Source: Patescibacteria group bacterium
GTDB lineage: Bacteria > Patescibacteriota > Minisyncoccia > Phycocordibacterales > Zambryskibacteraceae
Direction: 5' to 3'
DNA: 64,000 bases
NCBI GenBank assembly: GCA_004322205.1
Contig: SCSN01000008.1
Location: forward strand, 18,370 to 82,369
Shown piece after piece: positions 1,085 through 62,302 of this stretch. The notes beneath the pieces were generated by a model. It saw only the letters and a program-made list of their open reading frames with translations, was not told the origin of the DNA and ran no database searches. A program made the translations under genes and the position numbers. Every line of letters begins with the position of its first letter. Position 1 is the stretch's first letter.

Positions 1085-2260
1085 CTAGCGCGTGTCTCGC
1101 AGCCGCGCCGTGTACCACAGACCGCTGGCGGTTACGAGAGCCAGCAGGTAGAACATCTCCCGCAGACCGAAAGTTGAAAGTGAGAGCCAGGCAAGCGCCG
1201 GTGCAAGGATAAAAGCGATAGGGCGCATCAGCCGGAAGAAACTTACAATGTGGGCGTCTTTCCCTTTAACTTGTTTGAAGAAATAGCTTTCATTGGTGGT
1301 TTCGGTCAGGCTGGCGCCGATGCGAGAGAAGAAGAGGAGGATCATCCAGGGAAGAACCGCCGCGACTTTAAGAGAGGGTATGAGAAACGAGGCGAGAGCC
1401 ATGATGATGAAACCCGCAAACATCATCTCTTTTTCTCCGAGCTTGCGGTCGGCCAAGCGCCCGACTGGAATTCCAAGCATTATAAACGGCAGGAGCATCA
1501 CGGTAAATATTTGCCCGATGGTCTGCCAGGAAAAACCGACAACGCCGTGAAGGTATATTGGAGTGTAAATGACCATCCAAGCGTAGAAGAACTGCAAGGT
1601 CAGTTGTGCCATTGAAACGCGCATGATGTTTGGGTGGCTGGTGATTTGGCGGATTGTTTCGGGAATACTCGTTTCTTCCTGGTAGCTCTCGATCTGGCGT
1701 AAAGAGGAGAAGGCGAGGAGAAAAAATGGAATTAAGAGGATGCTCGAGAGAAGATAGAGTGGTCGGTAATTCTCCCCCGCCACAATTAGTGAAACCAGGA
1801 GAGGAGCGACAACCAGGCTCCCATTGGCAACTGTCAGGTAACCTCCTCGAATAAGACCGGTGTTTGTCTCTTTTTTGATGACAGTTTCTAGGAGAATGTC
1901 GAGGGCAAAAACAATCATCATTACCACTCCTTGGTGAACGATAAAAGCGCCGGCAACAAGCCAGGGGATGCTACTTACTGCCAAGAGCCACACTGCGACA
2001 AGCTCGGCAGCTGACCAGAGGATGAGAGTGAAGAATACACCCGTCCTGCGGATGAGCCACGGCGCCTCGAGAAGCAAGATGAGATTAAGAACCGATCCCA
2101 AGACAAAGATTAAACTCACCGCGGAGGCGGAAAAAAATCGGGTAAGTAGTGAAGAGTTGATGTAGATAATGAGGAAATAATGAAAGGCGATAAGGAAATT
2201 CGCGAGAAAAATCGCGCGCAGGTGTCGGTTGCGAGATAAAATTGAAAGAATGGCCGTCAT
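1085..2260 (-). CDS. MFS-type membrane transporter
   Basis: 391-aa polytopic protein with about 12 hydrophobic helices and short charged loops, as in the major facilitator superfamily. Confidence 0.7.
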   Translation of the reverse strand: MTAILSILSRNRHLRAIFLANFLIAFHYFLIIYINSSLLTRFFSASAVSLIFVLGSVLNLILLLEAPWLIRRTGVFFTLILWSAAELVAVWLLAVSSIPWLVAGAFIVHQGVVMMIVFALDILLETVIKKETNTGLIRGGYLTVANGSLVVAPLLVSLIVAGENYRPLYLLSSILLIPFFLLAFSSLRQIESYQEETSIPETIRQITSHPNIMRVSMAQLTLQFFYAWMVIYTPIYLHGVVGFSWQTIGQIFTVMLLPFIMLGIPVGRLADRKLGEKEMMFAGFIIMALASFLIPSLKVAAVLPWMILLFFSRIGASLTETTNESYFFKQVKGKDAHIVSFFRLMRPIAFILAPALAWLSLSTFGLREMFYLLALVTASGLWYTARLRDTR

Positions 2261-2487
2261 CCCGTTAGAAGCAGGTCGCGGTCAGCACTTCCTGCATATA
2301 GTTATTTTGATAAATGTTTCTGCTTAATTTCATATTTTACCAAAGCATTTATTGAAACTGCGACCGCCCCGCCTGCCATCGCCTAATGCACAAATGTAAG
2401 CTATATAGATTGTAGTGTAAATATGTCATTTTCTACAAAATACCACTATTATCGCTCTGGCATTGGCGGGCAGGGGCTTCTAACGGA
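2260..2487. repeat. MITE-like intergenic element bounded by 13-bp inverted repeats (TCCCGTTAGAAGC ... GCTTCTAACGGA)
   Basis: Left repeat at 2260-2272 and inverted copy at 2476-2487, with an AT-rich interior. The same repeat pair bounds a second element at 37379-37506. Confidence 0.45.
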
Positions 2488-2499
2488 GCTCGTGAACAA

Positions 2500-4350
2500 C
2501 TAAACGCCAAGCACTACAGGGATGACGATAGGGCGCTTGGCGGTTTTTTGGAAGAGAAAACGGCTGACCGCGTCGTTGACGTTTGCTTTGACGAAGTCGA
2601 AGTTAATGGGGTTCATGCCGAAGGTAGCTTTCTCGATCGTTCGCTTAATAATGAGCCGGGTTTGCGAAAGCAGTTCCTGTGATTCGCGCAGATAGACAAA
2701 GCCGCGCGAAATTATATCCGGAGATTTCTTGAGCTTGCCGGTTTTGATGTCAATGGTTGCGACAATGACGACAAAGCCGTCCTCGGCAAGCATCTTGCGG
2801 TCTCGCATCACCACTTCTTGGACGTTGCCGATGGAAAAACCGTCAACCAGGACAGGGCTAGAGGGCGCCGATTCTTTGAGTTTGACGAGTCTTTTACCCT
2901 CATCTTGAATCTCGATGACCATGCCGTTGTCGGGGACGATGATATTCTCCGGTGTTATTCCGAGAGAGAGCGCCACTTCTTCGTGAACGCGGAGCATGTA
3001 GTGGGTGCCGTGGATGGGGATAAAGAAACGCGGATGAATTTTTCTGTGAAGCCATTCGAGCTCGCCGCGGTTGCCGTGCCCGGTTGAGTGAATATAGACG
3101 TCGGAGGTGCGGTAGTGGATGATCTTGGCCCCTTGCCGAGCAAGGTTGTCTTTGAGTTTCTGCACCGCCCTTTCATTGCCGGGAATGATGGAGGAAGAAA
3201 GAAGAACCGTATCATTTTTAGTGATCTTGACGTACTTGTGGCTTTTGAGAGACATTCGCATCAGGGCGGCGAATTCGTCGCCTTGGGCGCCGGTGGCGAG
3301 AATAATGATTTTGTCTGGAGGGTATCTCTCCATCACTTCTGGCATAATAATGGTGTCAGGTTTAACTTTGAGTCTGCCGACCTTAGCGGCGATTTCAACG
3401 TTGGTTTTCATGCTGCGCCCTTCAACCACCACCTTTTTGTCGTAGCGCTCGGCGCTCTCGATAATTGCAACGACGCGCTCAATTTGTGAGGCGAAGGTGC
3501 CGATGATAAGGCGGCGCTTGGTGGTGCGAATGATTTCGTCCAAATTTTTGTGGACGAGACTCTCCGGAGTGGACCAGCCGGGATTTTCAACATTAGTTGA
3601 GTCCATCATCAGGAGAAGAACATTTGCATTTTCAAAAATTGAATACTCTTCCTCCTCTGCTTCCGTTGGCACACCATCGACGTGATCAAGCTTGATGTCG
3701 CCGGGATTAACGATCCAGCCTTGGGGAGTCTCAATGATAATGCCCATCGATTCAGGGATGGTATGGGTAACGGCAAAAAAGCGCACCTTGAGATTGCCGA
3801 CGCTGATATGGTCCTCTTTTTCAACCATCCGCAGATCAAGAGCGGGAAGATGAGGAAATTCCTCCTGGCGCTTGCGAATCATGATGGAAGTGAGAAAGCG
3901 GGTGTAGATGGGAGGGTTGCCGATCCGGTTCATTATGTAAGGGATAGCGCCGATATGGTCGAGGTGTCCGTGGGTGATGATGAGGGCGCGCACTTTGTCT
4001 TTGCGCTCTTCGAGGTATTTGGTGTTGGGCAGGATATAGTCAATGCCCGGCGTGTCTTCCTCGCGGAACTGAAAACCGGCATCAAGGACAATAATGTCGT
4101 TGCCGTACTCGACTACCGTCATATTCTTGCCGATTTCCTCAACTCCGCCCAGGGGGATGATGCGGATACTGTCGCCAGCCGGAGGAATCTTTTCTTCTTC
4201 CGGTCGTGTTGCGATCTGCCTCTGCGTCCCACGCATCGGACGGCGCGGACGCCGGAGCATTCCCATGCCGCGCACTCGAAGGTTTGGAGCTTGGCGGGGG
4301 CGCAGCCGGGTGATGTGTTGAGAGAAAGAATCTTGGTGTTGTGGGTTCAT
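2500..4350 (-). CDS. rnj: ribonuclease J
   Basis: Metallo-beta-lactamase HxHxDH motif (ITHGHLDHIG) with beta-CASP and RNase J C-terminal regions. Also carries a basic N-terminal extension of roughly 60 aa. Confidence 0.9.
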   Translation of the reverse strand: MNPQHQDSFSQHITRLRPRQAPNLRVRGMGMLRRPRRPMRGTQRQIATRPEEEKIPPAGDSIRIIPLGGVEEIGKNMTVVEYGNDIIVLDAGFQFREEDTPGIDYILPNTKYLEERKDKVRALIITHGHLDHIGAIPYIMNRIGNPPIYTRFLTSIMIRKRQEEFPHLPALDLRMVEKEDHISVGNLKVRFFAVTHTIPESMGIIIETPQGWIVNPGDIKLDHVDGVPTEAEEEEYSIFENANVLLLMMDSTNVENPGWSTPESLVHKNLDEIIRTTKRRLIIGTFASQIERVVAIIESAERYDKKVVVEGRSMKTNVEIAAKVGRLKVKPDTIIMPEVMERYPPDKIIILATGAQGDEFAALMRMSLKSHKYVKITKNDTVLLSSSIIPGNERAVQKLKDNLARQGAKIIHYRTSDVYIHSTGHGNRGELEWLHRKIHPRFFIPIHGTHYMLRVHEEVALSLGITPENIIVPDNGMVIEIQDEGKRLVKLKESAPSSPVLVDGFSIGNVQEVVMRDRKMLAEDGFVVIVATIDIKTGKLKKSPDIISRGFVYLRESQELLSQTRLIIKRTIEKATFGMNPINFDFVKANVNDAVSRFLFQKTAKRPIVIPVVLGV

Positions 4351-12399: not shown

Positions 12400-12489
12400 G
12401 GAGGCGTCGCATAGCGGTCTAGTGCGGTTGCTTGGAGAGCAACTATGTCCGAAAGGGCATCGTGAGTTCGAATCTCACCGCCTCCGCCA
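12400..12489 (+). tRNA. tRNA-Ser (anticodon GGA), type II with long variable arm, CCA encoded
   Basis: Hand-folded cloverleaf. Acceptor stem GGAGGCG/CGCCTCC, anticodon stem GTTGC/GCAAC with loop TTGGAGA, a long variable arm, T-loop GTTCGAATC and a 3' CCA. Confidence 0.85.
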
Positions 12490-21536: not shown

Positions 21537-21610
21537 GCGTAAATTATACCAGTAATGAACAACTGACAACAAACAACATCAATTCTAAATTAAAGAACTC
21601 TGGTTGTTGG

Positions 21611-21640
21611 TTGTAAGTTGTTGGTTGTAAGTTAGAATAT
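21611..21640 (+). repeat. tandem duplication of the GTTGTTGGTTGTAAGT motif upstream of fba
   Basis: ttggttgtaagttgttggttgtaagt contains a -35-like TTGTAA, then 16 nt, then TAGAAT, then 6 nt to the GTG start. Related copies occur at 12371, 16901, 28966 and inverted at 42441. Confidence 0.5.
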
Positions 21641-27795: not shown

Positions 27796-27873
27796 TATTA
27801 TATTCTGTATTGTGCTTTACTGTCACTGTACTAGAGTACTAGAAATTTAATATCTTAATATCCCAGCAGTAGT

Positions 27874-27901
27874 CTTAGTATATCATATATGATGCATTAA
27901 G
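27874..27901. repeat. palindrome family member 1 (CTTAGTATATCATATATGATGCATTAAG, imperfect)
   Basis: Shares the ATCATATATGAT core with the copies at 28518 and 32649. Confidence 0.5.
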
Positions 27902-28069
27902 AAACTCGCAAGAAACTGGCTGTTAGGCGAGTTTTTAGCTTTTGGTTCCAAATTGAAACTATTGAAACTACTGCCTCTTGCTTCCATGACTTATGTTTTC
28001 GCCGCGTCTCCGCTTTTTACACCTTCTCCTTGACAGGCGTCTTTGGGTTGCTATGGTTGGACTAGAGGC

Positions 28070-28416: not shown

Positions 28417-28517
28417 TCGGGGTGCAGGGCTTTCGGCAAGGTTTGAACGTAAAGATCGAAGCGCGAAAATTTCGCGGGAAACACAGAAAAAGCAAGAAAC
28501 CATGAAACTCTCCTTTC

Positions 28518-28543
28518 TTAGTCTATCATATATGATAGACTAA
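28518..28543. repeat. palindrome family member 2 (TTAGTCTATCATATATGATAGACTAA, perfect 26 bp)
   Basis: Perfect palindrome about 100 nt upstream of rpmE. Confidence 0.55.
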
Positions 28544-28650
28544 GCGTGCAAAAGACAAGAAAGTTTAAGAAAACTGTTGGATTCGCGGCGATAGGTGTAG
28601 GTCAAGTGCCACCCTTGCTTTTTATTTTAAGATTGTTATATTCAGCTCGC

Positions 28651-31798: not shown

Positions 31799-31870
31799 GC
31801 CGCCTTAGCTCAATGGTAGAGCACTCGCTTTGTAAGCGAATGGTTCCCGGTTCAAGTCCGGGAGGCGGCT
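31799..31870 (+). tRNA. tRNA-Thr (anticodon UGU)
   Basis: Hand fold: acceptor GCCGCCT/AGGCGGC, D-arm GCTC...GAGC, anticodon loop TTTGTAA, T-arm CCCGG-TTCAAGT-CCGGG. CCA is not encoded. Confidence 0.8.
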
Positions 31871-32648: not shown

Positions 32649-32672
32649 TAATGTATCATATATGATACATTA
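32649..32672. repeat. palindrome family member 3 (TAATGTATCATATATGATACATTA, perfect 24 bp)
   Basis: Between the RNHCP gene and the GH1 gene. Confidence 0.55.
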
Positions 32673-35844: not shown

Positions 35845-37377
35845 ATGAGTTATAAATTAACCCCTTACTTCAAGGTTGGCCGCGCCTCGGATCTGCAAGG
35901 AAAAGACAGGGTTCTTTACCGTGCGCTGGAAATACTCCCCGGTTTCTTGTCATGGACTACCCTGATAACGGCTGTTCTACTTTCAATTTTCGCACCCGTG
36001 ACGGCGGCGTATTTTATTATTGCGCTGGACGTCTATTGGCTGCTGAAGACTGCTTACCTGTCGCTTCATTTGAGACACAACTGGAAACGGATACGCTATA
36101 ACCTATCGGTTAATTGGTCGGAGATGCTCTCCAAGATGAAGTACGAACATATTTTTCATCTTGTGATCCTGCCTTACTACAAGGAAGATTTAGCTGTTGT
36201 GGAGCAGAGCATCAGGTCTCTTCTTGAGACCGAATACGACAAAAAGAAAATGGCAGTTGTGCTGGCGGTTGAAGAAAGAGCAGGAGAGAAAGCGATAGAG
36301 ATCGGCAAGGCTATTGAAGGGCGATACGCGAAAAAGTTCGGTCATTTTCTGGTCACTGTTCACCCAGCCGATGTTCCCGGTGAGATGGCTGGCAAGGGCT
36401 CAAATATCTCATATGCGGCCGAGGAAGCGAGGAAAAAAATACTTGATCCGAGCCGCATTCCCTATAAAGATGTAATTGTTTCCGCTTTTGATGTGGACAC
36501 TGTGGCTTACGAGCAATATTTCTTGTGTTTGACTTGGCATTTTCTCACCTCAGCCGACCCATACAAGGTGTCGTTTCAACCTGTTCCTTTTTACAACAAC
36601 AACATCTGGCAGGCGCCAGCAATTTCGCGGGTGGCGGCCGGCTCAAGTACTTTCTGGCAAATGATGCAGCAGGAGAGGCCGGAGAAGCTTGCCACCTTCT
36701 CTTCTCATTCAGTAAGTTTTCAGTCGCTTTATGAAGTTGGTTATTGGCAGAAAAATATGGTTTCAGAAGATTCGCGCATTTTCTGGAATCTCTTTGTTGC
36801 TCGAAGCGGCGATTATTCCGTCGTGCCTCTTTCTTACCCGGTTTCGATGGATGCCAATCTTGCTCCTTCGTTGTGGCAGACGATGAAAAATATTTACCGC
36901 CAGCAGCGGCGTTGGACTTGGGGAGTTGAGAATATTCCCTATATTCTTTTCGCCTTTATAAAAAACAAGGCTATTCCTTTTTGTACCAGACTGAGAGTCG
37001 CGTTTGTACAGATGGAAGGTTTTTGGTCATTGGCTACAAATCCGATCATGATATTTTTGCTCGGTTGGTTGCCGGTAATTCTCGGAGGGGAGCGTTTTAA
37101 TAAAACAATTCTTTCGTATAATCTGCCGGTTTTGACTAGGAATATAATGATTGTGGCTATGTTGGGACTGGTTCTTTCTTCCGTTATCTTCATTTCATTT
37201 CTGCCGGAACGACCGAAGGAGAGGGGGAAATTAGCAAAATTGTCTATGGTACTGCAATGGATTCTCATTCCCTTTACCATAGTAGTTTTTGGAGCAATAC
37301 CCGGGCTTGATGCTCAAACACGGCTTATGTTTGGGAAATACCTTGGTTTTTGGGTAACACCTAAGCATAGGAAATGA
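35845..37377 (+). CDS. integral-membrane family 2 glycosyltransferase (processive, cellulose/chitin-synthase-like)
   Basis: DxD-type region (AFDVDT) and the QQRRWTWG (QxxRW) processivity motif, flanked by multiple TM helices. Confidence 0.6.
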   Translation: MSYKLTPYFKVGRASDLQGKDRVLYRALEILPGFLSWTTLITAVLLSIFAPVTAAYFIIALDVYWLLKTAYLSLHLRHNWKRIRYNLSVNWSEMLSKMKYEHIFHLVILPYYKEDLAVVEQSIRSLLETEYDKKKMAVVLAVEERAGEKAIEIGKAIEGRYAKKFGHFLVTVHPADVPGEMAGKGSNISYAAEEARKKILDPSRIPYKDVIVSAFDVDTVAYEQYFLCLTWHFLTSADPYKVSFQPVPFYNNNIWQAPAISRVAAGSSTFWQMMQQERPEKLATFSSHSVSFQSLYEVGYWQKNMVSEDSRIFWNLFVARSGDYSVVPLSYPVSMDANLAPSLWQTMKNIYRQQRRWTWGVENIPYILFAFIKNKAIPFCTRLRVAFVQMEGFWSLATNPIMIFLLGWLPVILGGERFNKTILSYNLPVLTRNIMIVAMLGLVLSSVIFISFLPERPKERGKLAKLSMVLQWILIPFTIVVFGAIPGLDAQTRLMFGKYLGFWVTPKHRK

Positions 37378-37378
37378 A

Positions 37379-37506
37379 TCCCGTTAGAAGCTGCGAAAAT
37401 CGGACTTATAATAATATGTCAATGATGGTTCGATACAATCGAAAGAGGAATAATAATCTTAAAACTTCAAGCAGAAACAGCCAGTCCGTTTCCTGCTTCT
37501 AACGGG
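37379..37506. repeat. second copy of the MITE-like element (TCCCGTTAGAAGC ... GCTTCTAACGGG)
   Basis: Left repeat at 37379-37391, inverted copy at 37495-37506, which directly abuts the ATG at 37507. The interior is AT-rich and 128 bp long. Confidence 0.45.
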
Positions 37507-38394
37507 ATGAAACCCCTCTCTCGCACAAAAAGACGCATCTACCTGATTTTTTTCGCATTAGTGTTCGTTGTGTCTTTGCCGTTGGTGATTTTGTATGCCA
37601 GAGGTTACCGCCTAACGCTCTCGGAGGCTCTTAAGTTCGGCAGAACGGGCGGCTTTTATATTGCCGCAACGCAATCCGGGGCGGAGATTTACATCGATAG
37701 CAAACTTGTTAAAAAGACGGGCATTTTTCAAAAGAATGTTCTGGTGCAGAACCTAAAACCCGGCTCATATGACATCAAGGTTGTCAAAGACGGCTTCCAC
37801 ACTTGGACAAAGACACTTTCTGTTTTTTCGGAGACAGTAACTGAAGCTCATCCATTTATGCTTCCGGAAAATCCTGAGCTCGTTGAAGTACCGCCGTATT
37901 TGTCTGATTCCGGCATGCCGACATCAACCCCACCCAAAGCTTCGCTGATAAACACTCTGAGAAATCCAGAGTATATTCAAGCAGCAGCTTTGTTTTCCGT
38001 CGCTTCAAGTAAGGAGACTGCCTTAAAGAGCGGAACTTCCACTGAAATTCTTGGGATTCAGAGGAAACTCTCCGTTGAAAATCGAGACGGCAGACTTTAT
38101 ATCGAGTGGTTGGGCAAGTCTGCTGACATTCCAAGCTATTTCTGCCAGTACGAGCAATGCAAGTCGTCAATTACACTTGCCGGTCTTTCGGCGGTAAAAG
38201 TTTTTGATTTCTATCCCGGCCGTGGGGATCTGTTGATTATCGCTGTGTCGGATGGTATTTACGTGGCTGAAATGGACGACCGTTCAGCACAAAACATTCA
38301 ACCTCTGTTTCCGGGCAAGAATCTTGATTTTCGGATCGACGGAGACGTTATTTTCATAAAACAAGCGAAACGAATGTATTTTCTCTCTCTTTAG
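37507..38394 (+). CDS. PEGA-domain protein, membrane-anchored
   Basis: N-terminal TM followed by a KPGSYDIKVVKDGFHTW PEGA-like motif. Confidence 0.55.
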   Translation: MKPLSRTKRRIYLIFFALVFVVSLPLVILYARGYRLTLSEALKFGRTGGFYIAATQSGAEIYIDSKLVKKTGIFQKNVLVQNLKPGSYDIKVVKDGFHTWTKTLSVFSETVTEAHPFMLPENPELVEVPPYLSDSGMPTSTPPKASLINTLRNPEYIQAAALFSVASSKETALKSGTSTEILGIQRKLSVENRDGRLYIEWLGKSADIPSYFCQYEQCKSSITLAGLSAVKVFDFYPGRGDLLIIAVSDGIYVAEMDDRSAQNIQPLFPGKNLDFRIDGDVIFIKQAKRMYFLSL

Positions 38395-62257: not shown

Positions 62258-62302
62258 GAAATAAAGGTTCCTCGGGGCTGCCCCGAGGAACCTTTATTTT
62301 TC
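62258..62302. terminator. bidirectional intrinsic terminator (15-bp perfect arms)
   Basis: AAAGGTTCCTCGGGG-CTG-CCCCGAGGAACCTTT flanked by A and T tracts. Confidence 0.75.

Follow-up and report, generated by a model that had tools for sequence, protein, structure and literature searches.

Several described systems resemble, in part, the element family analyzed here in Patescibacteria (CPR). The closest functional analogue is provided by the MIRUs of mycobacteria, which insert at start codons and carry an internal ORF coupled to the host gene (Supply et al. 1997, via PMC12548453). MIRUs are 46-101-bp direct or tandem units, occur only in mycobacteria and lack long terminal inverted repeats (TIRs); they are not known to have a coding parent. 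The CPR element meets the trait of start-codon insertion with an internal ORF whose coupling is inferred, and the common logic would be an insertion made harmless by translational coupling. The coupling spacing is -4 in MIRUs; among the CPR elements, the miniature copies have a spacing of +4 (TAA-CGGG-ATG) and the nuclease-coding ones a spacing of -4 (ATGA). Judged by host and repeat structure alone, membership in the MIRU sequence family is not supported, as the host belongs to Patescibacteria and the copies are single units bounded by inverted repeats.

The second related group includes Correia, ERIC, RUP and MITEAba12, which, like the CPR element, are small and multicopy, have TIRs, target-site duplications and hairpin transcripts, and lack their own transposase. 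Known bacterial MITEs originate from DDE insertion sequences and show no restriction to start codons. In contrast, the terminal base of the CPR element rebuilds a start codon, its interior contains an open leader frame, and it has a relative encoding a GIY-YIG nuclease. This relative resembles the free-standing GIY-YIG homing genes (phage T4 seg, I-TevI relatives) in being a selfish nuclease gene wedged between host genes. Free-standing GIY-YIG homing endonucleases possess DNA-binding domains and one cognate site, and have no terminal repeats, target duplications or miniature derivatives; the CPR nuclease, however, is a bare 94-aa catalytic domain with copies at many unrelated genes. In size and single-domain build it is similar to the UPF0213 / YhbQ-type proteins (PDB 1zg2, 1ywl), which, as far as is known, are encoded by single-copy chromosomal genes of unknown role. 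In the literature searched, no title or abstract links UPF0213/YhbQ to mobility, repeat-encoded termini and start-codon insertion were not found reported, the repeat sequence was absent in this context, and no link between MITEs and Patescibacteria was found. We also found there no description of the combination of start-codon insertion, a rebuilt codon and a 277-bp unit with a 94-residue GIY-YIG nuclease.

Two copies in the window and their empty sites

The window, i.e., the whole 64-kb stretch of DNA that was analyzed, contains two copies of the element with the following features.

37379-37507, plus strand: copy 2, a complete 129-bp miniature element with 13-bp TIRs and an AT-rich interior, between the GT2 and PEGA genes
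37379-37391, plus strand: left TIR of copy 2, TCCCGTTAGAAGC, exact 13-mer
37495-37507, plus strand: right TIR of copy 2, GCTTCTAACGGGA (TCCCGTTAGAAGC exact on the minus strand)
37375-37378, plus strand: left copy of the target-site duplication TGAA flanking copy 2
37508-37511, plus strand: right copy of the target-site duplication TGAA flanking copy 2
37416-37502, plus strand: leader ORF of copy 2, 28 codons, MSMMVRYNRKRNNNLKTSSRNSQSVSCF followed by a stop codon 4 nt before the host ATG
37507-38394, plus strand: host gene of copy 2, PEGA-domain protein
2260-2488, minus strand: copy 1, a 229-bp element flanked by the RNase J stop (2500-2502) and the MFS start (2258-2260)
2260-2272, minus strand: ATG-proximal repeat of copy 1, GCTTCTAACGGGA on the minus strand (TCCCGTTAGAAGC exact on the plus strand); its base 2260 supplies the A of the MFS start codon
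2476-2488, minus strand: distal repeat of copy 1, degenerate CTCCGTTAGAAGC, 11/13 with two mismatches
2265-2333, minus strand: leader ORF of copy 1, 22 codons, MKLSRNIYQNNYMQEVLTATCF followed by a stop codon; it starts at the TATGAA motif of the element family
2368-2474 (approximate boundaries), minus strand: nested insert of about 100 bp in copy 1, with GC-rich inverted arms CCCCTGCCCGCCAATGCC / GGCGATGGCAGGCGGGG
1085-2260, minus strand: host gene of copy 1, MFS transporter

An earlier note, made from the sequence alone, had described two elements with 13-bp repeats, each adjoining an ATG, and this description held. Its claim of a perfect repeat at both ends held for copy 2 (13/13) and failed for the distal end of copy 1, and the spans it gave (2260-2487, 228 bp; 37379-37506, 128 bp) were corrected to those listed above. 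The first 16 nt, said to be identical, are so only at the ATG-proximal ends of both copies, while the AT-rich interiors were confirmed (GC content of 0.42 in copy 1 and 0.39 in copy 2, vs 0.49 in the window). On the coding strand, the ATG-proximal ends share CCTGCTTCTAACGGGATGA (19 nt), and both run through GCTTCTAACGGG directly into the ATG of a long ORF, MFS on the minus and PEGA on the plus strand; the other end of copy 2 reads TCCCGTTAGAAGCTGC. A single 13-mer with up to two mismatches is unremarkable alone, with 4 matches in the window vs 1.9 expected; the paired arrangement CCGTTAGAAGC..N..GCTTCTAACGG had no occurrences in 100 shuffles. The two interiors are barely alike (local score of 23 vs 16.8 +/- 2.3 for shuffled sequences; 8 of 500 shuffles reach 23). 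The predicted RNA folds have energies of -43.1 kcal/mol (z = -3.5) for copy 2 and -76.4 kcal/mol (z = -3.3) for copy 1.

Copy 2 is a demonstrable insertion, as shown by its TGAA|..|TGAA flanks together with the empty ATGA junction in relatives. The A at 37374 and the left TGAA form the fossil original start codon ATG, from which the leader frame is also open (42 codons), and the stop codon of the GT2 gene (TGA, 37375-37377) lies inside the same TGAA. The right repeat holds the TAA stop of the leader ORF (37500-37502), and its final base, A 37507, forms the rebuilt PEGA start codon with the TG of the right TGAA. In three relatives (L001-L003), the GT2 and PEGA genes lie without the element, overlapping by ATGA or 4 nt apart; the L001 junction reads ...AAAAATGAAAAC with the ATGA stop/start overlap.

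Copy 1 has no clean target duplication (CGAG vs TGAC) and is interpreted as an older copy with no duplication left. The TAA at 2267-2265 closes its leader ORF 4 nt ahead of the MFS start codon. The nested palindrome-bounded insert, which splits the element between GAAGCC and GCGGTCGC and forms a separate arm in the predicted RNA fold, makes copy 1 about 100 bp longer than copy 2. Three other loci (L101, L144, L130) have shorter CCTGCC..GGCAGG inserts at the same spot. Among 72 loci with MFS orthologues, the element is absent in most, and in many RNase J still lies immediately upstream, with only 6-26 nt left ahead of the ATG; four lineages carry the element, and its insertion site is occupied in L171, L173 and L208. 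Exact-protein look-ups of the window's own genes found no record.

Distribution and integration point of the family

Further copies were identified by a scan of species-representative genomes, limited to elements whose 11-nt ends matched exactly and whose spacer measured 73-133 nt. The ascertainment is biased by these limits, the counts are lower bounds, and all sequences are MAG contigs. At least 120 loci were found in about 97 Patescibacteria MAGs, vs about 4 expected by chance; several genomes carry 3-10 copies, with up to 4 copies within 8 kb. Miniature copies are typically about 100-140 bp long. Across the family, the 13-bp TIRs carry an invariant core CCCGTTAGA / TCTAACGGG and their variants are compensatory at both ends. 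The interior sequence is not conserved across the family, with a median similarity of 0.69 (up to 0.95) within a genome and 0.585 between genomes.

The elements have a strong positional preference. An ATG or GTG is abutted by 104 of 125 elements, of which 95 are followed by an ORF that reaches 60 codons or is truncated by the locus end, and the orientation relative to the gene is fixed in >90% of copies (about 90% at the start of a long ORF). Gene starts account for only about 10% of non-disruptive NTGRA sites, vs 91% observed for the elements (p about 1e-84). No conserved signal was detected in the element flanks beyond ATGRA. The host genes are unrelated (77 proteins, mostly singletons), and no functional bias was seen among them.

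Target duplications consisting of TG plus 1-3 nt flank 114 of 143 elements (4 nt in 87, 3 nt in 19 and 5 nt in 8). The base preceding the left duplication is A in 98 cases, G in 9, T in 4 and C in 3, matching start-codon usage. A 12-bp repeat with a 5-nt ATGNN duplication was rejected in favor of 13-bp repeats and a 4-nt TGNN duplication, because left copies read GTG, TTG or CTG while the right one reads ATG, and because the L299 element with C..G ends yields GTG. Integration takes place between the first and second bases of the start codon. The old start codon stays upstream, and that of the intact host gene is rebuilt from the last base of the element (A; G in C..G-type copies) and the duplicated TG.

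The family shows the MITE traits of terminal inverted repeats, target-site duplications with empty sites, and small, many-copy units without their own transposase gene; for a further trait, an autonomous partner that encodes the mobilizing enzyme, the 277-bp element with the same ends is a candidate whose transposase activity is unproven. The MITE proposal of the earlier note is supported by the further copies, target duplications and empty sites, and by a longer coding element with the same ends, i.e., by each of the checks it had suggested, with the qualification that the coding element encodes a GIY-YIG nuclease and not a classical transposase. Its idea that the element targets start codons is likewise supported. 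The suggestion that the element donates a translation start context is not refuted but made more precise: the first base of the rebuilt start codon comes from the element, which usually also brings a short ORF ending 4 nt before that codon.

The 277-bp nuclease element and the leader ORF

The 277-bp elements with the same ends are filled by one ORF encoding a 94-aa GIY-YIG (UPF0213-like) nuclease. The protein matches the Pfam GIY-YIG family PF01541 (E = 1e-16, above the curated cut-off), its closest solved relatives are PDB 1zg2 and 1ywl (UPF0213 / YhbQ-type; E = 7e-10 and 1e-4), and its similarity to the group I intron endonucleases (TIGR01453) is weak (E = 0.002, below cut-off). Among 2296 homologues, an alignment of 60 full-length top matches revealed invariant Y13, Y24, R32, H38, E58 and N84, which we take to be catalytic-type residues of the GIY-YIG fold, and (nearly) invariant termini MNPVR.. 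and ..LSLTG. These first and last residues are encoded by the terminal repeats. Six independent nuclease loci all show the arrangement [A/G]TG(N)|TIR..TIR|[A/G]TG, each before a different host gene. The nuclease ORF begins at the old host start codon in most copies, and its TGA overlaps the rebuilt start codon in 5 of 6 loci examined (ATGA; GTGA in L299). Over the last 24 nt of copy 2, 22 positions are identical to the 3' end of the nuclease gene. No GIY-YIG gene is present in the window itself; this search did not extend to the remaining MAG. In a sample of 1.3 Mb of CPR DNA there are about 200 miniature and 2 coding copies, and no pair of ends lies more than 265 nt apart, so the sample contains no transposase-sized element; no classical transposase was found. 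Phage carriage was rejected, as three viral scans gave chance-level matches, none encoding the nuclease.

Most miniature copies keep one frame open over about 19-29 codons, counted from an internal ATG and ending with TAA in the right repeat (UAA-CGGG-AUG); the encoded peptide is not conserved. Of 92 elements, 58 have at least 18 open codons in this frame, vs 23 and 17 for the other sense frames and 27.9 +/- 4.2 (maximum 40) for shuffled interiors, and 43 have an ATG-initiated ORF that ends at the host ATG, vs 18.9 +/- 4.0 in the null. In about 37% of the miniature copies the TAA frame stays open for fewer than 18 codons, and in about half there is no ORF of 17 codons or more that begins with ATG. 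The TATGAA motif is read as the start of the leader ORF rather than as a "-10 box" because the conserved final T is missing. Termination-reinitiation requires overlaps or very short spacers (PMC10666635), and the TAA located 4 nt before the host ATG suggests coupling of this kind; the coupling is inferred, in the absence of expression or translation data.

Other functions of the interior were considered and rejected. A peptide function is not supported, as substitutions in the leader ORF show no third-position excess (87/90/80 by codon position) and comprise 20 synonymous vs 166 non-synonymous changes. Read-through from the fossil ATG is not the main device, since only 17 of 73 elements read through, roughly twice the rough by-hand expectation of about 10%. 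An internal sigma-70 promoter was rejected, with promoter-like matches in 98 elements numbering 20 forward vs 12 reverse. Bridging of a Shine-Dalgarno (SD) site by the hairpin was rejected as well, as SD cores are rare upstream of the fossil ATG (3%); in these genomes they occur in only 8% of control gene starts. An integron attC site was excluded by inspection, the GTT..AAC order being the reverse of that in attC.

Proposed explanation, alternatives and implications

We propose that the two copies in the window belong, as non-autonomous miniature members, to a single mobile-element family spread across Patescibacteria, and we consider the account of nuclease-driven mobility with translational coupling, taken as a whole, to be likely. 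The miniature copies appear to derive from the 277-bp nuclease-encoding unit, and the GIY-YIG nuclease would mobilize both kinds of members; this is inferred and not shown, as no transposition chemistry has been demonstrated. The ORF ending at the host AUG would hand ribosomes over to the host gene by termination-reinitiation, and its translation may melt the terminal stem, in which bases up to the A of the AUG are otherwise paired. By this hand-over and melting, the insertion would be nearly silent in genomes with few SD sites. Several points count against the proposal, among them that the window has no GIY-YIG gene, that GIY-YIG nucleases are not known to catalyze strand transfer, that a sizable part of the miniature copies lack the open leader frame, and that the target duplication varies in length (3-5 nt). 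Recognition of start codons also remains unexplained, because the 94-aa protein is a catalytic domain only, without a separate DNA-binding domain. A bolder reading, which could as readily prove wrong as right while transposase activity is unproven, regards the 277-bp unit as an autonomous insertion sequence that represents a new class and is smaller than any other known. Its 94-aa GIY-YIG protein, the only one it encodes, would act as the transposase, with the unit integrating between the first two bases of start codons, borrowing the host start codon and promoter to express itself and returning ribosomes through the overlapping stop and start, and the miniature copies, including both in the window, would be non-autonomous derivatives that keep the leader ORF for the hand-over.

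The first alternative is an ordinary MITE moved in trans by a conventional DDE-type transposase recognizing TCCCGTTAGAAGC, with the GIY-YIG ORF as cargo or unrelated and the start-codon bias resulting from target preference and selection. TIRs with a 3-5 bp target duplication are the classical DDE signature, and miniature copies far outnumber coding ones. However, no transposase-sized element was seen in the 1.3-Mb sample, and the repeats encode the conserved termini of the nuclease, as expected for an insertion sequence with its own enzyme and not for cargo. We regard this alternative as unlikely.

It is also improbable that the family represents a free-standing homing-endonuclease gene with decayed relics, whose nuclease would cut alleles free of the element and which would be copied in by double-strand-break repair, with direct repeats arising from microhomology-mediated repair and not from a staggered cut by a transposase. 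GIY-YIG is a classical homing-endonuclease fold, the weak TIGR01453 match points the same way, and four distant lineages carry an element at the same MFS start site. On the other hand, dozens of unrelated genes have a copy at their start, both in one genome and across genomes, so that the homologous flanks needed for homing are lacking; the duplications are regular; and the short protein has no DNA-binding domain. Neither a single cognate target in a homologous allele nor a DNA-binding domain, the features that define a homing endonuclease, is seen here.

A non-mobile invertible promoter switch (inverton), or a host cis-regulatory leader RNA with ends conserved for host function, would fit elements of about 110-230 bp with inverted repeats, an AT-rich interior, a stable terminal stem (z about -3.4) and a location immediately before genes, but is very improbable given the target duplications and empty sites, the fixed orientation (which fails the inverton criterion, albeit without read-level inversion data), the absence of a clear promoter, the unconserved interior and the lack of an Rfam family match (with Rfam 15 covariance models, neither the window nor 16 loci gave a match at the gathering score, and the strongest of the weak matches was a chance one to CRISPR-DR, E = 2.2).

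If the proposed nuclease-mobilized, coupled account is correct, a selfish element can colonize extremely compact genomes, where almost any insertion harms, by inserting at the one position that allows the start codon to be rebuilt and ribosomes to be passed on. The GIY-YIG superfamily (UPF0213 type) would then join the enzymes that move prokaryotic transposable elements, and the small "GIY-YIG nuclease family proteins" of CPR genome annotations, a large family, would be given a role. The element might be developed into a compact, start-codon-directed insertion tool, and its repeats would serve as an annotation rule marking true start codons in CPR MAGs. Finally, the family would offer a natural test case for termination-reinitiation in genomes where SD sites are few.

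The window copies and their junctions

The two miniature elements of the window very likely belong to a family of mobile elements associated with start codons. They lie among the following features, the host gene being the one directly after each element.

Elements and neighboring genes
1085-2260, minus strand: MFS gene, host of copy 1
2260-2488, minus strand: copy 1, flanked by the RNase J stop codon and the MFS ATG
2500-4350, minus strand: RNase J gene
35845-37377, plus strand: family-2 glycosyltransferase gene
37379-37507, plus strand: copy 2, flanked by the glycosyltransferase and PEGA-domain genes
37507-38394, plus strand: PEGA-domain gene, host of copy 2

The exact 13-mer TCCCGTTAGAAGC occurs at 2260-2272 (plus), 37379-37391 (plus), and 37495-37507 (minus), and the fourth terminal repeat, at 2476-2488 (minus), has two mismatches. 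The earlier note's claim of this 13-mer at all four ends thus held for copy 2 and not for the distal end of copy 1; its claim that both elements abut an ATG held, GCTTCTAACGGG being directly joined to ATG on both coding strands. The paired arrangement appeared in none of 100 dinucleotide-preserving shuffles. Both interiors are AT-rich, with hardly any mutual similarity. The window belongs to a Patescibacteria MAG contig, its PEGA protein being 100% identical to an NCBI 'Patescibacteria group bacterium' protein encoded on a 118-kb contig.

Copy 2 is an insertion, with a 4-bp duplication, TGAA, at its junctions: ...AAATGAA/TCCCG...CGGGA/TGAAACC (slashes marking its borders). The element is absent from three contigs of relatives (PEGA protein 52% identical), where the glycosyltransferase and PEGA genes either share an ATGA overlap or are separated by 4 nt, and deletion of copy 2 with one TGAA yields exactly the relatives' ATGA junction. 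Copy 2 contributes, as its last base, the A of the current PEGA start codon.

Copy 1, at the MFS start, is an element of the same kind as copy 2 but older: its distal repeat has decayed and it retains no target-site duplication. Nested within it is an insert of about 100 bp (about 2368-2474) with GC-rich arms at its borders, at the spot held by short CCTGCC..GGCAGG palindromes in elements of three other loci (L101:1270-1408, L144:7003-7144, and L130:1008-1141). This palindrome lies between GAAGCC and GCGRTCGC; it spans 19-21 nt in those loci, borders the ~100-bp segment in copy 1, and is possibly a second, nested small element or hairpin family. L171, L173, and L208 likewise carry an element at the RNase J-MFS junction, and it is missing from most of 72 orthologous MFS loci from metagenomes, many of the element-free ones still having RNase J directly upstream, just 6-26 nt ahead of the ATG. 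Such patchy occupancy points either to recurrent insertion at this one start codon or to an old insertion that was later lost.

Other features of the window
12400-12486 and 31799-31870: two tRNA genes
21603-21630: two tandem repeats of the 14-nt unit GTTGTTGGTTGTAA
27337-27382 and 62259-62299: perfect, terminator-like hairpins of 21 and 20 bp
27873-27902, 28517-28544, and 32649-32672: palindromes with the common core TATCATATATGATA (e.g., CTTAGTCTATCATATATGATAGACTAAG), resembling repeated operator sites of one regulator

Family distribution and insertion geometry

A scan of one genome per species with the pattern CCGTTAGAAGC-N(73-133)-GCTTCTAACGG identified at least 120 loci vs about 4 expected by chance, which answers the earlier note's call for copies beyond the window. 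The matches come from about 97 MAGs, which with few exceptions belong to Patescibacteria and represent many of its classes, with 3-10 copies in several genomes and a maximum of four within 8 kb; the sample is limited by the exact ends required, the restricted size range, and the use of MAG contigs throughout. Scanned viral contigs gave only chance-level matches, and no Rfam family matched the elements. Copies on L096, L120, L149, L155, L156, L165, L168, and L191 lie in bins of Planctomycetota, Bdellovibrionales, Elusimicrobiota, Omnitrophota, or Gammaproteobacteria, and may be either mis-binned CPR DNA or transfers outside Patescibacteria. Tandem elements with a common duplicated flank (...CGGGATTCATCCCGTTA...) were seen in the right flanks of L113, L130, L138, and L191.

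The family consensus is atgaa-TCCCGTTAGAAGC-CGCGRTCGC...A-rich interior...GAYCGCGAYCT-GCTTCTAACGGG-ATG, in which the terminal-repeat core CCCGTTAGA/TCTAACGGG does not vary and repeat variants are paired across both ends (GAAGT/ACTTC, GAAAT/ATTTC, GAGAC/GTCTC, and others). Interior similarity has a median of 0.69 (up to 0.95) within a genome vs 0.585 between genomes, as expected under local amplification. Host proteins are mostly unrelated (77 complete ones compared).

In 104 of 125 elements an ATG or GTG adjoins one end; 95 of these 104 lead into an ORF that has at least 60 codons or is truncated by the locus end, and orientation relative to the host gene is constant in >90%. Assuming a 13-bp repeat, the duplication measures 4 nt in 87/143 cases, 3 nt in 19/143, and 5 nt in 8/143, most frequently TGAA, TGGA, TGA, or TGG. 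The base preceding its left copy (A 98, G 9, T 4, C 3) mirrors start-codon usage, which places integration between the first and second bases of the start codon. The rebuilt, downstream start codon takes its first base from the element: L290 has a GTG fossil start codon (the host's original, left upstream) and a rebuilt ATG, and L299, whose element has C..G ends, a rebuilt GTG.

This placement may reflect either genuine targeting or the selective removal of copies from other parts of the very short intergenic regions, two causes that the data do not separate. Random insertion with loss of gene-disrupting copies fails to account for it, because gene starts hold 91% of observed insertions vs about 10% of non-disruptive NTGRA sites in a crude census.

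A sister family of about 97-101 nt was also noted, with C..G-type ends CCCCGTTAGAAGC..GCTTCTAACGGGG (left end T in L163), a conserved internal GC-rich hairpin CCCCGCGGCTTGCCGCGGGG, and TTTA or TTCA duplications. Its copies lie away from long-ORF starts and had no Rfam match in the scanned loci.

Sister-family copies
L092:5455-5555
L107:645-745
L126:2088-2188
L141:7643-7742
L163:3483-3587
L175:2418-2521

A nuclease-coding relative

Two 277-bp elements at start codons (L128:2985-3261 and L146:6654-6930), with ends TCCCGTTAGAGAC/GTCTCTAACGGGA, are each filled by a single ORF matching the GIY-YIG catalytic domain (PF01541, E = 1e-16). A database search returned 2296 homologues, of 86-119 aa (most 93-95) in the subset inspected and named, where a source name was given, 'GIY-YIG nuclease family protein' from Patescibacteria. 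In an alignment of 60 full-length top matches, the repeat-encoded termini, MNPVR at the start and LSLTG at the end, show little or no variation. Among solved structures, the UPF0213 proteins 1zg2 and 1ywl are nearest, and SLX1 is only weakly similar. The gene precedes six different host genes at six independent loci.

Host genes of nuclease elements
L287: 67-aa ORF
L290: GT1 glycosyltransferase
L294: Bac_transf gene
L299: smpB
L128 and L146: two more, different, uncharacterized

In L287, L290, L294, L299, and L128, the nuclease ORF uses the fossil host start codon as its own and ends in a TGA that overlaps the rebuilt one; in L146 its first codon is an ATG just within the left repeat, and the ORF lacks a TGA at the host ATG and continues out of frame into the host gene. 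The 119-aa GIY-YIG protein P0140 has TVSNGM immediately ahead of its MNPVRD start, the expected product of read-through from a preceding element's right end.

Over its final 24 nt, copy 2 agrees with the 3' end of the nuclease gene at 22/24 positions; the gene itself is absent from the 64-kb window. No end pairs >265 nt apart were found in 1.3 Mb of CPR sequence, so that sequence holds no transposase-sized element. The transposase with matching ends sought by the earlier note was therefore not found in this 1.3 Mb, and the coding unit with ends of this type encodes a GIY-YIG nuclease. From this evidence we infer that the miniature copies are likely non-autonomous derivatives of the 277-bp unit. 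We lean, without biochemical evidence, toward the GIY-YIG protein as their mobilizer.

Leader ORF and comparison with known elements

The median stop-free length of the frame ending at the right-repeat TAA (GCTTC TAA CGGG ATG) is 25 codons, and 58/92 elements keep this frame open over at least 18 codons, vs 23 and 17 for the other sense frames, 28-38 for antisense frames, and 27.9 +/- 4.2 (maximum 40) in 300 interior shuffles. In 43/92 elements (null, 18.9 +/- 4.0), an ATG-initiated ORF with a minimum of 8 codons terminates next to the host ATG. These leader ORFs, present in both window copies, begin about 40-50 nt inside the element, at a conserved TATGAA motif, and span 19-29 codons. Their peptide is unconserved (codon-position differences 87/90/80; 20 synonymous vs 166 non-synonymous changes). 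We infer, in the absence of translation data, that the frame's translation and end point are maintained, not the encoded sequence.

Termination-reinitiation requires overlaps or very short spacers (PMC10666635), and the 4-nt distance from leader stop to ATG therefore qualifies. The leader ORF would hand ribosomes over to the host gene by this route, and a ribosome translating it would also melt the terminal stem, because in RNA folds of copies 1 and 2 the stem pairs up to the A of AUG. With no expression or translation data, we consider such coupling slightly more plausible than its absence. Few genes in these genomes have Shine-Dalgarno cores (8% of control ORF starts), and many MFS orthologues (L207-L286, 60 nt upstream of ATG searched) have a TAnAAT box ending 6-9 nt ahead of the ATG, which together suggest that leaderless or SD-independent initiation is widespread in these Patescibacteria.

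No earlier description of the family was found in the literature searched, whose coverage was incomplete, and a prior report may exist elsewhere. In function, the mycobacterial MIRU (Supply et al. 1997, as summarised in PMC12548453) is the closest analogue. By structure the family qualifies as a MITE; unlike known MITEs, it integrates at start codons, contributes the first codon base, maintains an open leader frame, and has a coding relative of the GIY-YIG rather than the DDE type.
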